Shown in pieces: positions 7,501-32,950 of a stretch of 64,000 nt of DNA. The notes beneath the pieces were generated by a model. That model ran no database searches. It was given only the letters and a program-made list of their open reading frames with translations, and was not told the DNA's origin. The DNA is from Dehalococcoidia bacterium. GTDB lineage: Bacteria; Chloroflexota; Dehalococcoidia; UBA6926. Position numbers and translations under genes: made by a program. The stretch lies in the NCBI GenBank assembly GCA_965219405.1, contig OZ244736.1, positions 1,705,443-1,769,442 on the forward strand, in the 5' to 3' direction. Positions within the stretch are counted from its first letter, which is position 1, and every line of letters starts with the position of its first letter.

Positions 7501-8844
7501 TTGTTCGGCCAGGAGGAAATATTGGGCGAAGATTTTACCCATTCGGCTGTGATTCTCGCCATGCAGCTGGGCATTATCCTTGTGGCCGCCAAGCTTGCGG
7601 GCGAGTTTACAGAGCGCATTCTGCGGCAGCCGGCGGTCATTGGGGAGCTGGTAGCGGGCATCATCATCGGCACGGTGGCGATTCATGGGTTTGAGCCGCT
7701 CGGCTATGAGCCCATCGGGCTTTTTGAAGAGCTATTTGAGCCGCCGGAGGAGGGGGCGGTCATTCCCGTCCCGAAGACGCTGTTTGTATTCGGGCAGGTG
7801 GCGGCCATCATCCTGCTGCTCGAAACAGGACTGAATACCAATCTCAAGGCGTTCCTGCGGTTTGTGCCGCAGGCGAGCGTGGTTGCCATCGGCGGCGTGG
7901 TTGTGCCCTTTGCCCTGGGGGCATACGCGACTGTCTTGTTCGGATTTGCCGACTCTTTCTTTTCAGCCCCCGCCCTGTTTGTGGGAACTATCATGACCGC
8001 GACGTCCGTGGGCATCACGGCCCGCGTGTTGGCTGACTTACTACGTTTGGACTCGCCGGAGGGTGTAACGATTCTGGGCGCAGCCGTTGTGGATGACGTG
8101 CTCGGAATTCTGATTTTGACAGTTGTTGTAGGAGTGACGGCAGGCGAGTCTGTCGGGGCGGCTACGGAGGCGGCCTCGTTCGAATGGACCGAGGTGGCCG
8201 TGGTAGGCGCCAAGGCCATCGGCTTCTGGCTCGTGCTCACTGTGGGTGGGATATTGGGCGCGAAGTACATCGTCCGCGCAATCAACAGCATTCGTGTGGA
8301 GGGCGCGGCGATTGCAATCGTATTCGGCATCGGGCTGTTTGCAGCGGCGTTGGCGGAGATGTTCGGGCTGGCAATGATCATCGGCGCATATTCCGTGGGG
8401 TTGGCATTGTCTCAGACAGAGCTCCGCAATCAACTCCATCAGCCCCTGAACGGTCTATATCATGCGATGGTGCCAATTTTCTTCGTGGTGATGGGCACGA
8501 TGGTCGACATTCAGGCCATGGTTGATGCTCTCGGATTCGGGCTGGTCATCGTCGTGTTGGCGATTATCGGCAAGGTGGCGGGATCAGGACTGCCGGCGTT
8601 GGCGGCGGGGTTCAGCCGTATCGGAGCGTGGCGCGTGGGCGTGGGAATGACGCCGCGCGGCGAGGTAGGCCTGATTGTGGCAGGCATCGGCGTGTCACAG
8701 GGCCTGATTGGGCAGGATCTTTTTGGCGTCGCGATCCTGATGACAATTGCGACTACGCTTATCGCACCCGCCGTGCTGGTGCCTGCGTTCCGCAACAACG
8801 CCCCGGGCCTGCGCAAGGAGCAGGCGATGGAGAGCCAGGTTTAG
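7501..8844 (+). CDS. monovalent cation:proton antiporter (CPA family, NhaP/Kef-like)
   Basis: Twelve-TM-like hydrophobic profile. It includes QPAVIGELVAGIIIG and the GMTPRGEVGLIVAGIG motif typical of CPA exchangers. The start is uncertain; alternatives lie near 7561. Confidence 0.7.
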   Translation: MFGQEEILGEDFTHSAVILAMQLGIILVAAKLAGEFTERILRQPAVIGELVAGIIIGTVAIHGFEPLGYEPIGLFEELFEPPEEGAVIPVPKTLFVFGQVAAIILLLETGLNTNLKAFLRFVPQASVVAIGGVVVPFALGAYATVLFGFADSFFSAPALFVGTIMTATSVGITARVLADLLRLDSPEGVTILGAAVVDDVLGILILTVVVGVTAGESVGAATEAASFEWTEVAVVGAKAIGFWLVLTVGGILGAKYIVRAINSIRVEGAAIAIVFGIGLFAAALAEMFGLAMIIGAYSVGLALSQTELRNQLHQPLNGLYHAMVPIFFVVMGTMVDIQAMVDALGFGLVIVVLAIIGKVAGSGLPALAAGFSRIGAWRVGVGMTPRGEVGLIVAGIGVSQGLIGQDLFGVAILMTIATTLIAPAVLVPAFRNNAPGLRKEQAMESQV

Positions 8845-8890
8845 CGAACTGAGCGGAGTATGATGGAGGGGCGTCCCACCACGTAATCAT

Positions 8891-8962
8891 GCCCCTGTAG
8901 CTCAGCGGATAGAGCACCAGCCTCCGGAGCTGGTGGCCCGGGTTCGAGTCCCGGCAGGGGTA
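8891..8962 (+). tRNA. tRNA-Arg (anticodon CCG)
   Basis: Cloverleaf: acceptor GCCCCTG/CAGGGGT, D-arm GCTC-AGCGGATA-GAGC, anticodon stem CCAGC/GCTGG with loop CU-CCG-GA, T-arm CCGGG-TTCGAGT-CCCGG, discriminator A. No CCA is encoded. Confidence 0.85.
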
Positions 8963-9114
8963 TTTTTGTGCTCCGTTTTGGGATTAGGGCGCCCTCGTTC
9001 AATCAGTTTGGCTACACCATTCCTTGTCCATTGATTTAGTGCCTCAGTGGAACTCACTCATGTGGCAGGCCCCTACCCTTGCCCAAGACCCTGTGGTATG
9101 CGAGACTCCCCACC

Positions 9115-10227
9115 ATGTCGAACTTGCCCCATGCCGATGTTGTTGGCAGCCTGATCAGGCCGCCGGATTTGCTCGCCGCGCGAGAGGACATCACGGCTGG
9201 GCGAATGACGCCCTCGGATTTCAAACGCATCGAGGATGCTGCCGTCGATAGCGCAGTGGCTGCTCAAGAGGAGGCCGGACTCCAAATCCTCACGGACGGC
9301 GAGATGCGCAGGTTGTCGTTCCAGAGTCAGATGCCCGAGGCAGTGGAAGGCTTCGGCGAGTTCGATATCGACGCGTTCCTCTGGGGAGACTGGCGGGGCG
9401 ACGAACGGGTGGGAGACGCCCCCAAAGAGCGACCTGCTACCCTCGGCGTCGTCGGCAAACTCCGTCGTAAGCGCCACCTGTCCGCAGAGGAATTCACCTA
9501 CCTCCGCGGCCACACAACGCGGCTGCCGAAAGTCACGTTACCGAGTCCCAGCCTGTTCGCCAATTTCTGGTCGCCGGCCAAATCCGTCGAGGCATATCCT
9601 ACACTTGATGCGTTCCTGGCCGACGTTGCACTAATCATCCGTGAGGAGATCGAAGAGTTGATCAGGCTTGGGGCGACTTACATCCAGCTCGACGCCCCGC
9701 ACTACCCTCTCATACTGGACCCGACATGGGCGGCCTTCTACGAGTCCCAGGGCCGGAGCGGGGAGGACTGGATCGCCCAGGGCATCGAGCTGGACAACGC
9801 AGTGATGGAGGGCTTCACGGAGGCGGAGTTCGCGTTCCACCTTTGACGTGGCAACCAAGGCAGCCGTTGGTTGGCTGAAGGCGGTTACGACCGGATCGTC
9901 GAGCCGGTGCTCCAGCGGGTCAACGCGGATCGGCTCATGCTGGAATACGATGACGAGCGGTCAGGCTCGTTCGAGCCTCTTCGCGGCGTGCCCGACGATA
10001 AAACGGTGGCGCTTGGGCTCATTACGACCAAGTCACCCCGCGCCGAGACACCAGCAGAGCTTACAGCGAGGATCGCCGAGGCCGCCCAGCACTTTCCACA
10101 TGAGCAGCTCGCTCTCAGTCCTCAGTGCGGATTTGGCACGTCTATTGTCGGCAACCGCCTCACCATCGAACAGCAGAACGCGAAGCTCCAGATAGTGGCC
10201 GAGACCGCCCAAAGCGTCTGGGGGTGA
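9115..10227 (+). CDS. MetE-like (cobalamin-independent methionine synthase family, catalytic-domain-only ~370 aa) with in-frame TGA at codon 9844-9846
   Basis: The two track ORFs (9079-9846 and 9871-10227) are in the same frame, separated only by TGA. The read-through context FAFHL-[TGA]-RGNQG places the TGA at the His-x-Cys zinc-ligand position. The second conserved Cys context SPQCGFGTS follows. The conserved N-terminus MSNLPHADVVGSLIRPPDLL starts at 9115. This is either a Sec codon or a nonsense mutation. Confidence 0.5.
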
Positions 10228-10368
10228 ACTCCCCCATCACTCCTGTACGCTCCCACCACTTCCATTGTTGGAGCAGATGAGTTCAGCATCACAATTGCGC
10301 CTGAAGACTTTGCCAATTTCACCAATGTTGGCGATCTGATCGGCTACATCAATTCGAAGGCAGCTTAG
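10228..10368 (+). pseudogene. acyl-carrier-protein-like C-terminal fragment (no start codon, lacks the DSL phosphopantetheine site)
   Basis: The frame opening after the MetE-like stop reads ...SIVGADEFSITIAPEDFANFTNVGDLIGYINSKAA*. This resembles ACP helix 2-4 (EEFxIEIPDEDxxKxxTVxDxIDYI). It lies immediately upstream of an Sfp-type PPTase. Confidence 0.25.
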
Positions 10369-10419
10369 CTCATACCGCTACTCGCCCAAACAGCTGCCAA
10401 TCGACGTAAGGGAACTCGA

Positions 10420-10454
10420 GTGGGAGGGAGCAACCGCTGGCTGCTCCCTCCCAC
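10420..10454. repeat. perfect 13-bp GC-rich stem-loop (GTGGGAGGGAGCA-9nt-TGCTCCCTCCCAC), followed by CAATTG-N9-CAATTG dyad
   Basis: Seen directly. It is intergenic, upstream of the PPTase gene, with no T-tract on either side. Confidence 0.5.
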
Positions 10455-10498
10455 TGCCAGCTAGTCTGGGTCTCAATTGTTCGCGTACAATTGAAACG

Positions 10499-11233
10499 AT
10501 GGGCACCGGTATAGCCAATCAGTGGTGGGTTCGTTTCGCGCAGATTGATGGCGTCGATGTTATTCATGTCGATCTATCGCCAAACGCGGCGCACGAAACC
10601 CGAGCCCTGCGGTTCCTGAACGAATGGGAACGTGAACGGTGGACCCGTTATCATCCCGGAGCTCCGAGGCGTCGATTTGCGCTAAGCCGAGCAGCGCTGC
10701 GAGCGGTTCTCTGTGAGACTCTCCATTGCAACAATGACGAGCTTGAGTTTGGCTGGGTGGAACGCGGCAAGCCGCGCGCCTACGTGGACGGTGTACCCGC
10801 CCCGCTCCATTTCAATGTGAGCCATAGCGGCGACAACGGGATGCTCGCAATTTCACGGGATCACCAGGTAGGCATCGATATTGAAGAGATCAGCCAAGTA
10901 TTCCGATTTGACGCGATTATCGAATCGACCTTCAGTCCGGATGAGCAGGCTACGGTTTCGGCCGCGGAGAAAGACTGCGTAGCAAGAGCATTCTTTGAGA
11001 TATGGACCCTCAAGGAGGCAATCATCAAGGCGACCGGTGTGGGGCTGTCCGCGAACCTGCAATGCATCGAGACGCCCGCTGCGATGCGGAATGGCGCCGT
11101 CACCGGTCAAGTCCGGCTCCCCGAGTTTCCGGATGTGCGCTGGCGGCTGCACACGTTCAGCGCCAACGATTTCGTCGGCGCTCTTGCGGTTGAGACGGTG
11201 CCGTCGCCCGTAGTTGAGGATGCGTTCGAGTGA
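10499..11233 (+). CDS. 4'-phosphopantetheinyl transferase, Sfp/EntD type
   Basis: FNVSHSG, QVGIDIEEI and WTLKEAIIKATGVGL are canonical PPTase motifs. Confidence 0.8.
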   Translation: MGTGIANQWWVRFAQIDGVDVIHVDLSPNAAHETRALRFLNEWERERWTRYHPGAPRRRFALSRAALRAVLCETLHCNNDELEFGWVERGKPRAYVDGVPAPLHFNVSHSGDNGMLAISRDHQVGIDIEEISQVFRFDAIIESTFSPDEQATVSAAEKDCVARAFFEIWTLKEAIIKATGVGLSANLQCIETPAAMRNGAVTGQVRLPEFPDVRWRLHTFSANDFVGALAVETVPSPVVEDAFE

Positions 11234-11579
11234 CCGAAGAGCCCAGTCTGTTTGGCACGTTCCTGAGCTGATTTCCACTCATGACCCGACAGTCGATGAG
11301 AAGACGATCATTCGGCTGAGACGCCACGGCAATCCCGAGGGATCGCGTCTTGTCATGAGCCATGGCAACGGTCTGTCTATTGACCTGTACTATCCGTTCT
11401 GGTCAAACCTGTTAGACGATTTTGACATCATCATCTACGACCTCAGAAATCATGGCTGGAACCCCGTGGGCGACATCAGGAATCACAACCTTCCAACGTT
11501 CATCTGCGATTACGATCGGATACTCGAGACGATCCGTAAGGAGTATGGGGATAAGCCTACTTTTGGCATCTTTCACTAG
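11214..11579 (+). pseudogene. alpha/beta-hydrolase N-terminal fragment (truncated before the nucleophile elbow)
   Basis: VMSHGNGLSIDLYYPFWSNLLDDFDIIIYDLRNHGWN matches the HGxG / DxRGHG region of alpha/beta hydrolases. The ORF ends at ...TFGIFH*, and its 3' 168 nt overlap the convergent PhnB-like gene. Confidence 0.4.
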
Positions 11580-11981
11580 GCTTTCCATGATGGCCGTGGG
11601 AGCCCGCGCCATCAACTCATCCAGGTTCGCCGGCACCACCTGCCAGGAGAGGCCAAAGGGATCCGTAAGCCAACCGCAGAAGCCCTGTGTGCCGCCCTCA
11701 GCAAGCTTGTCCCAGTAATAATCAATCTCTTCCTGTGATTCGCAGGGGACGACGAAGGAGATTGCCGGCGTCATTTCAAACATTGGCCCACCATCAAGAG
11801 CAGTACATGTAAGGCCATCCAACTCAAACTCTATTTGAGCCGCCCCCTTTGCAGGGCCTGCAGGAATCTCGATTACGTTCGTGATTCGGGAGTTTGGAAA
11901 GACGGACACGTAGTGTTCAACCGCTTCCTTCGCCTTGCCGCCAAACCATAGAAACGGGCTGATTCCCTTTGAAAGGCTCAT
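11412..11981 (-). CDS. PhnB-like / VOC (glyoxalase-bleomycin resistance fold) family protein
   Basis: MSLSKGISPFLWFGGKAKEAVEHYVSVFPNS...GLTCTALDGGPMF...DPFGLSWQVVP is the PhnB/3-demethylubiquinone methyltransferase-like signature. The protein has an ~45-aa C-terminal tail. Confidence 0.65.
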   Translation of the reverse strand: MSLSKGISPFLWFGGKAKEAVEHYVSVFPNSRITNVIEIPAGPAKGAAQIEFELDGLTCTALDGGPMFEMTPAISFVVPCESQEEIDYYWDKLAEGGTQGFCGWLTDPFGLSWQVVPANLDELMARAPTAIMESLVKDAKSRLIPILLTDRLEYPIVIADERWKVVIPDVAHGVPAMISEVVDDDVKIV

Positions 11982-12155
11982 CGCGACTTGCCTCCAATCA
12001 CCTTGTCTTCATTGGTCATTCGTGTCCAATCGATACCTCATATTACTTATGGAAGCGGCGGATACGCTGTATCAAGAAAGACTTGCCATGCATTCGTTTT
12101 GTGGGCGAAGTAGTGACGAGGTGAGCGGAAGAACAGCCTTAAATGGGAGGTTGCG

Positions 12156-12284
12156 ATGACAAGCGCTGCGCACGACCACAATCAGCACGAGTGCGACGAG
12201 CACGAACATCATGGGGATGAGCCGAATCACGTACATGATTCCCACGAGTGTGACGATCACGAGCACCACGCGGACGGCAACTAG
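12156..12284 (+). CDS. 43-aa His/Cys-rich small protein (MTSAAHDHNQHECDEHEHHGDEPNHVHDSHECDDHEHHADGN), putative metal-binding peptide / leader
   Basis: Absent from the >=60-aa ORF track. A strong RBS GGGAGG sits 5 nt upstream of the ATG at 12156. The sequence is 14 His + 2 Cys of 43 residues with two HECD[ED]HEHH repeats. The stop at 12282-12284 is followed by a hairpin plus T-run. Confidence 0.45.
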   Translation: MTSAAHDHNQHECDEHEHHGDEPNHVHDSHECDDHEHHADGN

Positions 12285-12308
12285 TTTTATCCGCTGATTG
12301 GGCGAATG

Positions 12309-12338
12309 GCCACCGTTTAGGTGGCTATTCGTGTTTTT
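12309..12338 (+). terminator. intrinsic-terminator-like hairpin (GCCACC-GTTTA-GGTGGC) + TATTCGTGTTTTT between the small His-rich ORF and the CDF gene
   Basis: Seen directly: a 6-bp GC stem, 5-nt loop and T5 tract. A possible attenuator. Confidence 0.35.
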
Positions 12339-12491
12339 GGGGCCAATCTCAGTCCGGTTACAATCGTCGACGAATTGTTGGCGGTTTTCTTCTGGGTGAA
12401 ACCCGGACGGCTGACTGCACAAAAACTCATGCACGCTATACTTAGTCGAGTAGCGGGGACACAGTTTCCTTTTCAGGCGGACGGAAGAGCT

Positions 12492-13559
12492 ATGGCTCGC
12501 AGCGACGACGACCATCGACACGAAAACCATGACCACGACGGCCATGACCATGATTCCCACGACAGCCACGACCATGACGCCCACGATGGACATGATCATG
12601 ACGACCACGACGGCCACGCGGGCCACGATCACGCACACGATCTCCGGGGAACGAGCCGCCGCAATCTGCTATTCGCGCTAGTCCTCATCTCGACCTATTT
12701 GGTCGCGGAGATCGTCGGTGGTGTCGTTTCAGGAAGCCTTGCGCTCATCGCGGATGCCGGGCACACGCTCACAGATGTCGCGGCGATCGGCATAGCGCTG
12801 TTCGCGATGTGGATTGCGGAGCGGGGCGCAACCATCGAGCGCACCTACGGGTATTACCGTACGGAGATACTCGCCGCGTTCATGAACGCCCTAGCATTGT
12901 GGTTGATTGTCGGTTGGATTCTGTGGGAGGCGTTTCACCGCTTCAGGCTTGACGAGCACCACGTAGACGGTTGGCCGGTTCTGATCGTCGGCGTCGGCGG
13001 TCTGTTAATCAACATTGCCGCAGCGTGGATTCTGCATCGCTCATCCGGACAAAGCATCAACGTGGAGGGCGCCTTCCAGCACGTGCTTGCAGACCTGATG
13101 GGCACCGTGGGAGTCGTCATTTCAGGCACCGTGATCATCCTGACAGGTTGGACGCTTATCGATCCGATTCTCAGCGTGGTCATCGGACTGCTGATCCTGT
13201 ACAGCTCGTGGAGTCTTGTAATGCAGGTGTTCCGAGTGTTGCTTGAGGGCGTGCCGGAGCACATCGATGTATACAGACTCTGCGCCGATATCGAAGAGCT
13301 GCCAGGCGTGACCGTCATTCATGACGTGCACGTGTGGACGATTACGTCCGGCAACGAGGTGCTAACCGCCCACGTCCTGGTCGACCCTGAATTTACCGGC
13401 TCCGATCAGAATTTGCTGGATCAGATGCAAGGCATCATCAAGCTGCGCTATGCCATTGAGCACGCCACCATCCAACTGGAACGGTCTCCAATCCAATGCG
13501 ACGTGGAAAGCCACCACGTCGGCCACCTTGAGCACGCCCAACGGCCGATTGGCGTTTAG
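12492..13559 (+). CDS. cation diffusion facilitator (CDF) family divalent-metal efflux transporter, CzcD/ZitB-like, with His-rich N-terminus
   Basis: The N-terminal (HD)n tract is followed by 6 TM with ...SLALIADAGHTLTD... and HxxxD motifs and a C-terminal cytoplasmic domain (VHDVHVWTITSG). The start at 12492 follows a GGAAGAG RBS; the track ORF extends upstream to 12321. Confidence 0.85.
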   Translation: MARSDDDHRHENHDHDGHDHDSHDSHDHDAHDGHDHDDHDGHAGHDHAHDLRGTSRRNLLFALVLISTYLVAEIVGGVVSGSLALIADAGHTLTDVAAIGIALFAMWIAERGATIERTYGYYRTEILAAFMNALALWLIVGWILWEAFHRFRLDEHHVDGWPVLIVGVGGLLINIAAAWILHRSSGQSINVEGAFQHVLADLMGTVGVVISGTVIILTGWTLIDPILSVVIGLLILYSSWSLVMQVFRVLLEGVPEHIDVYRLCADIEELPGVTVIHDVHVWTITSGNEVLTAHVLVDPEFTGSDQNLLDQMQGIIKLRYAIEHATIQLERSPIQCDVESHHVGHLEHAQRPIGV

Positions 13560-23866: not shown

Positions 23867-25843
23867 TCAGGGCGTCCTGAGGTGCGCCGGCGTGCGCCGG
23901 GCGCAGTAGGCGCAGGTTCCGATGGGGGAAGTTTCGCCGGTGGAGAGGGGATTCCCCGGAGCGGTGAGACTTGTTGGCGTTGTTCCGGCCTTCACTAGCA
24001 GGCGGTGCAGCAAGCAGAGGGGGAGGCCGACGACGTTGAGATAGCAGCCGTTGAGTTCTGCGACGGGGCGGAATTCCGGGTGTTGGATGCCGTAGGCGCC
24101 TGCCTTATCGAACGGGTCGCCGGTGGCGATGTAGCCCTCAATTTCCTCGTCTGTGTAGTTGCGCATGCGGCCTATGGTGATTTCGTGACCGACGATGGGC
24201 TCAGGGTTGTCGCCGGACGGGATGACAGCGATGGCGGTTATGACCTGGTGGTCTCCTTCTCTAAGCGTGCGGAGCATCTGGCGGGCCTCATCCACGTTCT
24301 GTGGTTTGTTGAGGATGCGGCCGTCCGGGGCGACAACAACGGTGTCCGCGCCAACGACCGGGACTGCTGCGGTGTCGTCCGTGATGGATTGGGCTTTTCT
24401 GAGGGCGAGGTCCTGGACGTAGGCGACGGGCGGGGAGGCGGGGATAACGGAGTCAGCAGATTGTTCGATGTTGGAGGCGGGGGCGAGGGCGGCGAAAGGG
24501 GTGCTTTGGTGGGTGAGGATTTCGCGGCGGCGGGCTGAGGTGGAGGCGAGAATAAAGCCGTCTGACGGCATTCGCTCCAAGGTCGAAACGCTTTCAATGT
24601 GGTAGGTGTGGGGGAACATATCGACGGGTGTGACGTCGGTCAGCATGTAGCCGTAGAGGATGAGCTTGTTCAGGTCGCGGGCGAGGGTGGCCGGATCGCA
24701 GGAAACGTAGACAATGCGGCGGGGTTGGAGTCGGCGTAAGGCATCGATGACCTCCGGATAGCAGCCGGCGCGTGGCGGGTCAAGGATGACGGCATCGACG
24801 CGCTCATCAAGTTCCGGCAGGGCCTCTTCCGTCTTGGCCATGATCATCTCGACGTTGGGGAATGGCGCGAGATTGACTTCAGCGTCGCGGATGGCGGCGG
24901 CGGATTCTTCTATGGCAATGACGCGTCCGACCATCGGGGCAATGAGAGCAGCAATTGTCCCGACACCGGCGTAGGCGTCAACAACGGTGTCAGAGGACGT
25001 GGGTTGGAGGCGGTCCCTGACCAAGGCCATCATGCGCTCGGCCTGGGCGGTGTTGACCTGGAAGAAAGAGGCAGCGGACACCTTGAACGGCACGTCGAAC
25101 AGCTGCTCCTCATAGGATTCCTGGCCTGTTTCAACGCCCCGGTCATCGCCGCGATCGTTGAGAGCAGGATGGATGAGTGTCTCGCCCGTGTTCTTGCCGA
25201 TACGGACGGCAAGCTGGCGCTCGCGGTTGGTCAGCGCGCCATCGAGCTTGCGCTTGATATCGTTGATGCGCGTGTCCATGATCAGGCACTCATCGATGGG
25301 TTCGAACCGATGAGTGTGCCAATGGGTGAATCCGGTTGTGCCTTCGCGTCGCACGGTAAAACGAGCGTTGTTGCGGTAGTTCCAGGGGTTTTCGGCGGCA
25401 AGGATTTCTGAGACTGGCGGCTCCATAATCTGGCCGATCTGTCGGAGTTGATCAGTAAGGGCGCTCTGCTTGATCCTGCCCTGCTCTTCATAAGAGATGT
25501 GCTGGAGCTGGCAACCGCCGCACGCGCCAAAGTGCGGGCAGCGGGGTTCCACGCGCTCCGGCGATGGACGCAACACCTCCACGACCTCAGCAACGATGTG
25601 CGTTGGGTGCTCTTCACGCACCTCAACAATAACGCGCTCGCCCGCGATGCCGTAGGAGGCGAGGACGATTTTCCCGTCCTCACGTCGTCCCTCTGCCTCA
25701 CCCTGATGGCCCGAGCGCTCAAGTTCAACCGTGAGTCGCTGCGGCGGGCCGTCAGGAGTGGAAGATTTGCCGTTTCGCGGGGGAAATCGGCGGTGTTTCT
25801 TTCTGCTGGCTTTCATGGTTGTGGGAATCAGGGTAGCGGCCAC
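23867..25843 (-). CDS. 23S rRNA (uracil-C5)-methyltransferase RlmD/RumA-like (TRAM + 4Fe-4S + class I MTase) fused to C-terminal Maf nucleoside-triphosphate pyrophosphatase domain
   Basis: It has the CPHFGACGGCQLQH cluster, VVDAYAGVGTIA, DPPRAGC, and then ILASTSARRREIL...VVGADTVVV...GDPFDKAGAYGIQ (Maf). The exact start is uncertain. Confidence 0.7.
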   Translation of the reverse strand: MAATLIPTTMKASRKKHRRFPPRNGKSSTPDGPPQRLTVELERSGHQGEAEGRREDGKIVLASYGIAGERVIVEVREEHPTHIVAEVVEVLRPSPERVEPRCPHFGACGGCQLQHISYEEQGRIKQSALTDQLRQIGQIMEPPVSEILAAENPWNYRNNARFTVRREGTTGFTHWHTHRFEPIDECLIMDTRINDIKRKLDGALTNRERQLAVRIGKNTGETLIHPALNDRGDDRGVETGQESYEEQLFDVPFKVSAASFFQVNTAQAERMMALVRDRLQPTSSDTVVDAYAGVGTIAALIAPMVGRVIAIEESAAAIRDAEVNLAPFPNVEMIMAKTEEALPELDERVDAVILDPPRAGCYPEVIDALRRLQPRRIVYVSCDPATLARDLNKLILYGYMLTDVTPVDMFPHTYHIESVSTLERMPSDGFILASTSARRREILTHQSTPFAALAPASNIEQSADSVIPASPPVAYVQDLALRKAQSITDDTAAVPVVGADTVVVAPDGRILNKPQNVDEARQMLRTLREGDHQVITAIAVIPSGDNPEPIVGHEITIGRMRNYTDEEIEGYIATGDPFDKAGAYGIQHPEFRPVAELNGCYLNVVGLPLCLLHRLLVKAGTTPTSLTAPGNPLSTGETSPIGTCAYCARRTPAHLRTP

Positions 25844-25876
25844 GCAAGCGGGCAGGCAAGGAATCGGTGGCGATGT

Positions 25877-27172
25877 ATGCTAACATTAACGAAGCACAAA
25901 GGCGCGGATTCAGGTGGGGAGCAGCGATCCGTGGCAAGTATCTTATTTGGTGTTGGCGACCGCCGCGATCTTGATCGCGCGGCCGCAAAAGGCAACGGGC
26001 CGTTCGACGGAATGTACGCGGCGACGGAAGACGGTTTTTGGGCTCTGCGCCAGCGACTCATCGAGGAAAAAGAGACGGCCGGAGTCTCCGTGATGATTTC
26101 ACCGGGGGACCGTATTCCCCGTGTTCGACTCATTGAGGAGCTTCTGCGCCTGGAGGCGATGGGTGTCGAGTTAATCTCTGCAGAAGCGCGGGGGCATCCG
26201 CTTGAGATTGCCCTAACGCCGGAAAATGGCGCAGTTCCATCAGATCGAGGACAGATGATCCGACGGAGCATGGCGCGCAAGGCGCTGCGTGGCGTCGTTC
26301 TGGGCCGGATTCCGTATGGATACAAGACCGGAGAACGCGGTCAGTTGGAAGAACACCCCGAGGAAGCGACCGTCGTCAAAATCATCTTTGGGCTCGCGGC
26401 ACAGGGCAAGGGGATTCGTGCCATCGCGGCGGAACTGAATTCACGCGGGCTGCGAACCCGCCGGGGAGGCGCGTGGAGCATCGTCACAATCCGTGACATG
26501 CTGCGCAATCGCGTCTACACAGGCGCCTACAACCGGTTTGGCGCGCGTGTTGCCGGAAACCACCCTGCCCTTGTTGCATCCCCGCTGTTCAAGGAAATCC
26601 AGGAACGGCTTGACGAGCGGGCAAAGCGCGCCGGATACGGGGCGGGGAGGCCGTACCTCTTGTCCGGCACAGCCATCTGCGGCTCATGCGGCAGCAACAT
26701 GGTGGGCGTGACACGCCGGCAATCTTGGACACGGAATGACGGATCATCAGGATCCAACACTTATCGCTATTACCAGTGCGAGGCCGCGACGAACCAGGGG
26801 CGCTGCTCATACCACACCCGGCGAGCACGGGAACTTGACGCGGCGGTGCTGACACGTGTCGGCCTGGACGGGATCGCCTCACGGATCGAGGCAGCGGTCG
26901 ATTTACGGATAAGCAACCTGGCCAGGGAAGCGGCCAAAGGCCGAACGCCAGCGCAGGATATTCGTTCGGCGGCGCAGTTGCTGTTCCACGAGGCGGGGCG
27001 GCTGCGGGACGCGACGCGGACACACGGAAGCGCGTCGACGGCAATTGAATCCCTTCTCCAATTGGCGGATGACGACATGGCGCTTCACTCCTTACTGCGT
27101 GACGTGGTGCTCTTAGGCGTATCGCGGATAGTCGTTGGCGAGAAGGACGCGCGCGTCGCACTCAGAAAGTGA
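25877..27172 (+). CDS. large serine recombinase homologue with degenerate catalytic N-terminus (recombinase domain + zinc ribbon intact)
   Basis: The recombinase-domain region is present: RIPYGYKTGE...IRAIAAELNSRGLRTRRGGAWS...RVYTGAY. The zinc ribbon is present: LLSGTAICGSCGS...YYQCEAA...RCSY. The resolvase-domain core is recognisable (VSVMISPGDRIPR...GVELIS), but the YaRVSt nucleophile motif is replaced by ILFGVGDRRD. The track ORF extends upstream into the convergent gene. Confidence 0.55.
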   Translation: MLTLTKHKGADSGGEQRSVASILFGVGDRRDLDRAAAKGNGPFDGMYAATEDGFWALRQRLIEEKETAGVSVMISPGDRIPRVRLIEELLRLEAMGVELISAEARGHPLEIALTPENGAVPSDRGQMIRRSMARKALRGVVLGRIPYGYKTGERGQLEEHPEEATVVKIIFGLAAQGKGIRAIAAELNSRGLRTRRGGAWSIVTIRDMLRNRVYTGAYNRFGARVAGNHPALVASPLFKEIQERLDERAKRAGYGAGRPYLLSGTAICGSCGSNMVGVTRRQSWTRNDGSSGSNTYRYYQCEAATNQGRCSYHTRRARELDAAVLTRVGLDGIASRIEAAVDLRISNLAREAAKGRTPAQDIRSAAQLLFHEAGRLRDATRTHGSASTAIESLLQLADDDMALHSLLRDVVLLGVSRIVVGEKDARVALRK

Positions 27173-32206: not shown

Positions 32207-32950
32207 GTGAACAATAACGTTCCACTTTCTATTGCGGCGGTTGCGGCATTGGTGCTTGCAATCATTGCGGGCGGCGCGGTGTATTTCTCGCAGCAGGGAA
32301 CCATCAGCGGCCTGGAGGACGACAAGGTAGCGCTTGAGAACGATAAGGAAGGGCTCGAGGGACAGGTTGGCGAATTGGCGTCCATTACCGCGTTCGGCGG
32401 CGGCGTCAATGAGAAGTCGATGCCCACACTGACCGGCGACGTTTCCCACGTCATGGACGAGGTCTTCTCATTCAGCACGGAATACGCAATGTGCCGCGTG
32501 GACACCAACTTCACGGACTTCGTGATGCCGACGAACGCGTTGGGTGAACTCCCGATTGATGCCCACACGTTCTACATGGCCATGGCGTCCAATAGCGTCG
32601 ATAGCTATGAAATCACCACCAACGCCGATGGCTCAACACAGATAGTTCTTCAAGGGATGCTGGATTGTTTCACGGAAGTCGACCTCACCGAGAATGCGCT
32701 GGTGCCCGACGAGTTCAAGGCGGTCCACGGCAGCCGAATGGCCGGTGAGCCTGCCGGCTATCGCGTGACGGCCGTTGACGGCGGCATGGGCGGTGGAGGC
32801 GCCGGTGACAGCTTTGAGTTCACAACGTTCTTCGATCCAAATACAGCGCCCTTCAACCACGCTGTGTTCGGGCCGGAATTCACGTTCACCGGCACAATGG
32901 TGGCCGGTGAGATCACCATCAAGGACATCGAGGTCGGCAGCATGGAGTAG
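32207..32950 (+). CDS. hypothetical N-terminally membrane-anchored protein with coiled-coil and Gly-rich region
   Basis: TM helix LSIAAVAALVLAIIAGGAVYF, then LEDDKVALENDKEGLEGQVGEL. No known domain is recognised. Confidence 0.5.
   Translation: MNNNVPLSIAAVAALVLAIIAGGAVYFSQQGTISGLEDDKVALENDKEGLEGQVGELASITAFGGGVNEKSMPTLTGDVSHVMDEVFSFSTEYAMCRVDTNFTDFVMPTNALGELPIDAHTFYMAMASNSVDSYEITTNADGSTQIVLQGMLDCFTEVDLTENALVPDEFKAVHGSRMAGEPAGYRVTAVDGGMGGGGAGDSFEFTTFFDPNTAPFNHAVFGPEFTFTGTMVAGEITIKDIEVGSME

Follow-up and report, generated by a model that had tools for sequence, protein, structure and literature searches.

A gene at positions 9115–10227 of a 64-kb stretch of Dehalococcoidia DNA (contig OZ244736.1; the whole stretch is called the window below) encodes a protein resembling the catalytic half of the methionine synthase MetE and carries a single in-frame UGA, at codon 244. 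It is very probably a functional selenoprotein gene of a new family, with UGA-244 read as selenocysteine (Sec). The original prediction, made from the letters of the window alone, had left open whether the UGA was a Sec codon or a fresh nonsense mutation; the first option is now strongly supported by the pairing of Sec with cysteine (Cys) at this position among orthologues, by selection on the codons that follow the UGA, and by nucleotide constraints found in the UGA-containing (Sec) forms. The features concerned are collected in Table 1.

A MetE-like gene with UGA at a zinc-ligand position

The open reading frames (ORFs) at 9079–9846 and 9871–10227 lie, as originally described, in a common frame and are parted solely by the TGA at 9844–9846. 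Translation of 9115–10227 encounters only this internal stop, in the context ...AEFAFHL-(TGA)-RGNQGSRW..., with ...LSPQCGFGTS... following later. With the stop replaced, the protein scores 70.5 bits against PF01717 (Pfam Meth_synt_2; gathering score 21) over residues 9–342, and the read-through protein is matched along its full length by the Listeria protein of PDB entry 1YPX (E = 4e-48). Full-length MetE enzymes align more weakly and through their C-terminal catalytic half only (profile positions 424–725 of 750), the N-terminal folate-binding barrel of these enzymes of about 750 residues being absent from the 370-residue window protein. These alignments point to a single-domain, ‘core methionine synthase-like’ product, a putative MetE-type zinc-dependent thiol methyltransferase of the 1YPX type that consists of the catalytic barrel only. 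Scores against PRK06520 (233.8) and PRK06233 (212.8) fall below the curated NCBIfam cut-offs of 313 and 576, respectively; similarity to 3RPD (MesD) is remote (32.6 bits), and an exact-sequence look-up of the truncated ORF of the window gave no match. Nucleotide identity to orthologues is 82–85%, and identity of the read-through protein to that of the best loci reaches 91%.

The UGA falls in the column of the Cys of the H-x-C motif in 1YPX, in Candida albicans MetE (3PPF) and in 20 of the 20 closest full-length homologues, so the placement of the TGA at a zinc-ligand Cys in the original prediction is borne out by alignment. The other predicted zinc ligands, H242, E277 and C338, are invariant in all 83 orthologues described below. 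Equally invariant in this set are S12, E63 and D193, the aligned equivalents of the homocysteine-binding residues, which in E. coli MetE are S433, E484 and D599 (PMC7857596).

Sec and Cys forms alternate among orthologues

A protein search returned full-length matches that were all Cys forms, the best with 90% and the next with 87% identity; at the DNA level these two closest homologues carry TGC and TGT. The absence of full-length Sec forms from protein databases arises because gene callers split such genes at the TGA, and the codon was therefore read directly from DNA. The orthologue set comprises the window, two earlier loci and 80 loci taken from 313 relatives found in a scan of GTDB contigs with one genome per species. 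Among these 83 species-level orthologues the codon in the UGA column is TGA in 36, TGC in 37 and TGT in 10, that is, a Cys codon in 47. The TGA forms occur in many metagenome-assembled genomes (MAGs) of Dehalococcoidia and other Chloroflexota, several of them sponge-derived; further ones belong to Anaerolineae (L068), Caldilineaceae (L079), Desulfobacterales (L065) and Poribacteria (L082). Complete chromosomes with a TGA form include OY762213.1, OZ242203.1, OZ242019.1, OZ241912.1 and CBDCQG010000001.1.

On a neighbour-joining tree, parsimony counts at least ten changes between the Sec and Cys states. The window gene groups with TGA forms (L011, L004, L008, L052, L013 and others) in a clade that also includes, as nested revertants, the Cys forms L001, L007 and L010. 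A further 93 metagenome contigs match a degenerate DNA pattern of the TGA form exactly: in 74 of them the TGA is followed by a complete ORF of about 126 codons, in 10 the C-terminal length differs slightly, 7 run off the contig end and 2 are short. The search of related genomes for TGA orthologues that had been proposed at the outset thus yielded 35 other species-level genomes in addition to these contigs.

Two side observations concern stop codons in these genes. In the two short contigs (L100 and L146) the frame stays open beyond the TGA for just 24 and 13 codons; they may be decayed copies or assembly errors. A terminal TGA is rarer in Sec-form genes (8 of 36) than in Cys-form genes (28 of 47; Fisher p = 0.0008, uncorrected for phylogeny), and the window gene, with its terminator at 10225–10227, is among the eight.

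The reading frame beyond the UGA is under selection

In 36 of 36 TGA forms the frame after the TGA is open for exactly 126 codons. In this downstream part, the ratio of nonsynonymous to synonymous substitution rates (dN/dS) is 0.135 at a median dS of 0.86, compared with 0.103 upstream of the TGA in the same genes and 0.154 in the downstream part of the Cys forms. Each of the four CGN codons for Arg occurs at position +1 after the TGA, and across residues +1 to +9 (RGNQGSRWL) the amino acids are kept while the codons vary synonymously, which shows that the peptide immediately after the UGA is under selection at the protein level. The candidate restart codon of the window, TTG at 9871, is CTG in most orthologues, and no start codon is conserved after the TGA. 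Translation thus runs on past the UGA; the intact frame, the purifying selection and the conserved residues directly after the UGA effectively exclude a pseudogene as well as a divided gene whose second part has its own start.

TGA otherwise behaves as an ordinary terminator in the window, where it ends 18 of 45 genes. None of the 44 other gene-sized ORFs is interrupted, and Pfam matches among them span nearly whole domains; these ORFs include the nuo operon, hisD, hisG, ftsY, addAB-like helicases and POR. Reassignment of the genetic code is therefore ruled out, as is a general scatter of nonsense codons, which had been named at the outset as a sign that would tell against Sec and of which no instance was found among these 44 ORFs.

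A conserved hairpin follows the UGA

RNAalifold was applied to 35 distinct Sec-form sequences, numbered from the U of the UGA, and gave a consensus structure of nine pairs with an energy of −11.3 kcal/mol. Its upper part is the hairpin CAGCC-GUU-GG(C/U)UG, with a 5-bp stem (C18–G30, R19–U29, G20–Y28, C21–G27 and C22–G26) and a 3-nt loop that opens with G-U and starts 19 nt after the UGA; the triloop is G23-U24-U25, or G-G-U in four sequences. The lower stem is formed by G15G16/C32C33 and C12C13/G37G38. Pairs 12–38, 19–29 and 20–28 vary by G-U wobble alone, and pairs 15–33 and 18–30 are broken in two sequences each. The bacterial model for SECIS elements (Sec insertion sequences), bSECIS, specifies a loop of 3–9 nt, an upper stem of 4–16 bp, a G in the first two loop positions, 16–37 nt from UGA to loop and a minimum free energy of −7.5 kcal/mol or lower (PMC13188914). 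The consensus hairpin conforms to this model (5 bp, GUU, 19 nt, and −11.3 kcal/mol with the lower stem included); the upper stem alone reaches −7.5 kcal/mol in only 6 of 36 Sec forms.

In the window itself the hairpin can pair in two registers, as a result of the TTG GCT codons. The conserved register uses the 3′ arm GGUUG at 9869–9873, with loop GUU and one G-U pair. A shifted register uses the 3′ arm GGCUG at 9873–9877, with loop GUUGGUU and −7.7 kcal/mol, and also conforms to the bSECIS model; about ten other Sec forms likewise prefer it. Addition of a G23–U29 pair to the shifted register lowers the energy to −8.9 kcal/mol, but leaves a loop, UUGGU, without G in its first two positions.

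The hairpin stem is present in many Cys forms too, because the conserved peptide S-R-W-L largely imposes it. Hairpin energy alone is non-discriminating, and the contrast in loop nucleotides and codon choice was therefore relied on instead. C18 and C21 are each present in 36 of 36 Sec forms. The Arg codon that spans the loop start is CGT in 32 Sec forms and CGG in 4, both of which retain the loop GU; among Cys forms it is CGC in 26, CGT in 12, CGG in 6 and CGA in 3, and CGC removes the loop GU. Ten of the 12 Cys forms with CGT are immediate relatives of Sec forms. The codon motif GGC-[AG]GC-CG[TG] is found in 34 of 36 Sec forms versus 10 of 47 Cys forms (Fisher p = 5e-12, a value that ignores shared ancestry), and Cys revertants within Sec clades show relaxation at exactly these codon sites. 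The Sec forms are thus under specific nucleotide constraints at the hairpin. The codon pattern fits a course of events in which the hairpin pre-exists, Sec can evolve once the loop has GU, and the sites relax after reversion to Cys.

This hairpin is not the one put forward originally, CAACCAA-GGCAGCCG-TTGGTTG, which starts a few bases further upstream. That stem is indeed present in the window, but it is not a conserved element: its perfect pairing needs the window-specific TTG Leu codon, which is CTG in most orthologues and yields an A-C mismatch, its UGA-to-loop spacing is 12 nt as against 16–37 nt in the bSECIS model, and the predicted fold of the surrounding 71 nt is no more stable than that of shuffled sequence (z = −0.21). 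It was rejected as a functional element for its restriction to the window and its wrong spacing, and is replaced as the predicted recoding signal by the conserved hairpin. An Rfam scan of the window returned two tRNAs only, with no SECIS or other RNA.

Selenium metabolism in the lineages concerned

The BSepDB survey places two Dehalococcoidia MAGs among the ten bacteria with most selenoprotein genes, at 46–49 each (PMC13326102); one of them belongs to the same series, named by universally unique identifiers, as many of the loci analysed here. Two loci from unrelated genomes, out of 175, have the selenophosphate synthetase gene selD beside the MetE-like gene. In the Poribacteria MAG (L082, region 11459–12487), selD comes immediately after the Sec-form gene and has its own in-frame TGA in a canonical UxxK motif (U-A-A-K). 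In the Acidiferrobacterales MAG (L071), region 7980–11098 has the order selD, TauE-like permease gene and MetE-like gene, the latter in its Cys form. This adjacency is a faint hint of a tie to selenium metabolism. The two selD genes were the only hits of a tblastn search of all loci with E. coli SelA, SelB and SelD, the 93 metagenome contigs giving none; ARAGORN found no tRNA-Sec in the window or the 82 other loci. A screen for Sec/Cys homology over all loci produced nothing convincing, and a ‘CU’ selenoprotein candidate at 32633 in the window proved to be an antisense artefact.

Weighing the Sec reading

Several points count against a Sec codon at position 244. Searches of the 64 kb of the window and of the Dehalococcoidia loci found neither selA, selB, selD nor tRNA-Sec, and a motif screen and a search for read-through ORFs in annotation gaps revealed no second selenoprotein gene in the window. 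The hairpin, for its part, has a stem largely dictated by the peptide S-R-W-L, shows compensatory change only in pairs 15–33 and 16–32 (one each), and has an energy that fails to separate Sec from Cys forms; in the window its conserved register is weak (−4.5 kcal/mol) and competes with folds of −7.7 to −8.9 kcal/mol. Selenium insertion at residue 244 is itself deduced from comparative sequence data. The rival readings are nevertheless much less likely.

The best of them, which we nevertheless consider improbable, is that the UGA is recoded by a SECIS/SelB-like route with a residue other than Sec, namely Cys (carried by a tRNA-Sec-like Cys tRNA, or as Cys-tRNA-Sec under selenium limitation), or is read through by near-cognate Trp or Cys insertion. 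Cys-recoding tRNAs of a tRNA-Sec-like type have been reported in some uncultured bacteria, and the comparative data show a codon that is translated and interchangeable with Cys, without in themselves identifying the inserted residue. Sec is, however, by far the commonest explanation of UGA/Cys pairs accompanied by a GU-loop hairpin at the spacing seen in fdhF, and the lineages concerned are known users of Sec. Nor would there be an obvious gain in using UGA rather than TGC for Cys, and still deep clades retain the UGA state.

A true stop at the TGA, yielding either a split enzyme assembled from a 243-residue N-terminal and a roughly 118-residue C-terminal protein or a truncated N-terminal product only, is less credible again. 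The TTG at 9871 does open a 118-codon ORF, at which gene callers split the gene, but the lack of a conserved start in orthologues and the protein-level conservation of the nine residues between the TGA and this TTG/CTG codon speak against its use; a split would also delete a zinc ligand, and the break would have needed at least six independent origins, each exactly at the codon of the ligand Cys.

Least likely of all is a recent nonsense mutation or sequencing error, which would make the gene a new pseudogene amid regional decay by the tRNA-Arg gene: the closest full-length database proteins are one base away from TGA, gene fragments (ACP-like and hydrolase) lie just downstream and synteny with relatives breaks after the gene, but the same TGA recurs at this one codon in the other species-level genomes and metagenome contigs, the nearest tree relatives of the window gene are TGA forms, the frame beyond is intact at a dN/dS of 0.135 and the other genes of the window are intact, so that this half of the original prediction is rejected.

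Proposed mechanism and function

We propose that UGA-244 is decoded as Sec through the bacterial SelB/tRNA-Sec pathway, under the direction of the short SECIS hairpin within the gene, with G23-U24 presented in its apical loop. Sec would take the place of the first Cys in a His-x-Cys...Glu...Cys zinc site, a predicted role that rests on homology to MetE, and the catalytic zinc, which would activate the substrate thiol, would be bound by a selenolate rather than by a thiolate. Homocysteine is the most likely substrate: the invariance of the zinc ligands and of the homocysteine-binding residues makes a zinc-activated methyl transfer of the (seleno)homocysteine type the most likely chemistry. Clustering of neighbourhoods found no gene neighbour conserved across lineages, and gene context therefore gives no general clue to function.

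What Sec would offer at this site, be it a tuned Lewis acidity of the zinc or resistance to oxidation, is a matter of speculation. A bolder proposal, which we hold tentatively and with rather less than even confidence, is that this is the first natural enzyme with Sec directly on a catalytic zinc in a non-redox alkyl transfer, that the selenolate may tune ligand exchange or protect from oxidative inactivation, and that part of the family may (de)methylate selenohomocysteine or methyl-selenium compounds and thereby feed SelD. The suggested role in selenium metabolism derives from the adjacency of selD in the two unrelated genomes.

If the Sec reading is correct, a widespread Sec-containing zinc methyltransferase of the MetE type would widen the use of selenium to include a zinc site that acts as a Lewis acid in the central metabolism of sulfur and one-carbon units. 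Since MAG annotations split the Sec-form genes or call them pseudogenes, both methionine-synthesis capacity and the size of the selenoproteome would be underestimated in Dehalococcoidia/SAR202-like bacteria of sponges and marine habitats. The natural switches between Sec and Cys, at least ten in number, would in addition provide a comparative system for what Sec offers over Cys.

Genomic surroundings

Three relatives (L003, L008 and L013) are syntenic with the window up to the tRNA-Arg gene (8890–8963). Between this gene and the MetE-like gene the window has a gap of about 150 bp, versus 2.7–7.6 kb of extra DNA in the relatives (L003, 7272–9983; L008, 2259–9850; L013, 3034–9911). In L008 the two junctions of the extra DNA have about 13 nt in common (window 8963–8975). 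The extra DNA suggests an island integrated at the 3′ end of the tRNA-Arg gene.

Downstream, the fragments of an acyl carrier protein (ACP) gene and of a hydrolase gene pointed out originally are both real, and lie on either side of an intact 4′-phosphopantetheinyl transferase gene. In some relatives, the MetE-like gene is instead followed by polyketide-synthase genes (L001) or by a 2764-residue ORF (L008).

Elsewhere in the window, in region 23867–27172, a minus-strand ORF of 658 residues joins a TrmA-like tRNA methyltransferase domain to a Maf domain; its first ~130 codons overlap a plus-strand ORF (25448–27172) that resembles large serine recombinases, with no resolvase domain detected at its N terminus. 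A CDF cation-efflux gene (12321–13559) starts with a long His/Asp-rich tract (HDHDGHDHDSHDSHDHD...), opposite which long spurious ORFs occur (12072–13559 region).

Table 1 Features of the MetE-like locus, in window coordinates
Feature	Position	Strand	Description
MetE-like gene	9115–10227	+	370 codons, read through one UGA (residue 244, predicted Sec); terminator TGA 10225–10227
His242-Leu243-Sec244 codons	9838–9846	+	CAC CTT TGA; H-x-C zinc-ligand motif with UGA at the Cys codon
Original hairpin	9852–9873	+	7-bp stem, −8.5 kcal/mol; excludes the conserved hairpin
SECIS-like element	9855–9881	+	nt 12–38 from the U of the UGA; extent of the RNAalifold consensus
Upper hairpin	9861–9877	+	5′ arm CAGCC at 9861–9865; apical loop begins with G9866 U9867 (G23 U24)
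Glu277 codon	9943–9945	+	GAA, in LEYD; third predicted zinc ligand, aligned to the Glu of ‘IEF’ in C. albicans MetE; 83/83 orthologues
Cys338 codon	10126–10128	+	TGC, in SPQCGF; fourth predicted zinc ligand, aligned to the last zinc-ligand Cys of MetE; 83/83 orthologues
ACP-like C-terminal fragment	10267–10365		33 residues; same frame as, and directly after, the terminator of the MetE-like gene
4′-Phosphopantetheinyl transferase	10499–11233		intact
Alpha/beta-hydrolase N-terminal fragment	11214–11579		overlapped by a convergent gene at 11412–11981

Comparison with known systems

Within the literature and catalogues searched, the MetE-like gene belongs to an undescribed selenoprotein family, in keeping with the original prediction, whose author was aware of no described MetE-family selenoprotein. 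Zhang et al. 2026 (PMC13188914) tabulate 119 prokaryotic selenoprotein families and subfamilies with domain identifiers, and their Table 1 has neither PF01717 nor any other methionine-synthase-like entry. The family is absent also from the GOS selenoproteome table, the deep-Sep paper, the BSepDB text (PMC13326102) and Lin et al. 2015; a full-text literature search combining selenoprotein and methionine-synthase terms found nothing relevant, and no selenoprotein-specific model of NCBIfam release 20 matches the window protein.

The closest structural relative, 1YPX, is a Listeria ‘putative vitamin-B12 independent methionine synthase family protein’ from what NCBI names the ‘cobalamin-independent methionine synthase II family’. 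The 1YPX-type family may presumably correspond to the YxjG/YxjH type. The window protein shares with 1YPX the single domain of about 370 residues, the motif HxCRGN...LEYD...SPQCGF and the equivalents of the homocysteine-binding Ser, Glu and Asp; unlike the window gene with its UGA, however, 1YPX and all characterised relatives have Cys at the first ligand position. A similar architecture is found in the core (folate-independent) methionine synthases MesA–MesD, which represent the MetE catalytic domain without the N-terminal folate-binding domain, and none of which has been reported to contain Sec (PMC7857596). The window protein shares with these enzymes the zinc motif H-x-C...E...C as well as the residues that bind homocysteine. 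MesD, by contrast, is only a distant relative (via 3RPD) and has a partner, MesX (DUF1852), that was not encoded among the neighbours scanned in the window, L001, L002, L071 and L082.

Among known selenoprotein genes, E. coli fdhF offers the closest parallel to the proposed recoding: an in-frame UGA is followed by a hairpin within the coding sequence, and the apical loop GGUC (nt 22–25 in the K-12 genome) places G23-U24 at the same distance from the UGA. Sec is a ligand of the active-site metal in the fdhF product, and is predicted to be one in the family described here. The fdhF hairpin is longer, however, with a GGUC tetraloop and a bulged U in place of the 5-bp stem and GUU triloop (or 7-nt loop) of the window family, and its product is an oxidoreductase with Mo, whereas the window family is predicted to be a non-redox methyltransferase with Zn.

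The evidence assembled for the window family is of the kind on which catalogued families have been ‘predicted with high confidence’ (PMC13188914, PMC13326102): Sec/Cys pairs, homologues with TGA in several lineages that use Sec, conservation of the flanks and a structure resembling bSECIS. The catalogued families differ from it in being mostly thiol oxidoreductase-like, with UxxC or CxxU motifs, as against the HxU metal-ligand motif described here. To our knowledge, nearly all known bacterial selenoproteins either are of this thiol oxidoreductase-like kind or carry Sec on redox metals (Mo, W or Ni). Recoding of UGA under the direction of a SECIS element is well known, and the new part is the predicted role of Sec as a zinc ligand in a non-redox enzyme, which would be unusual.

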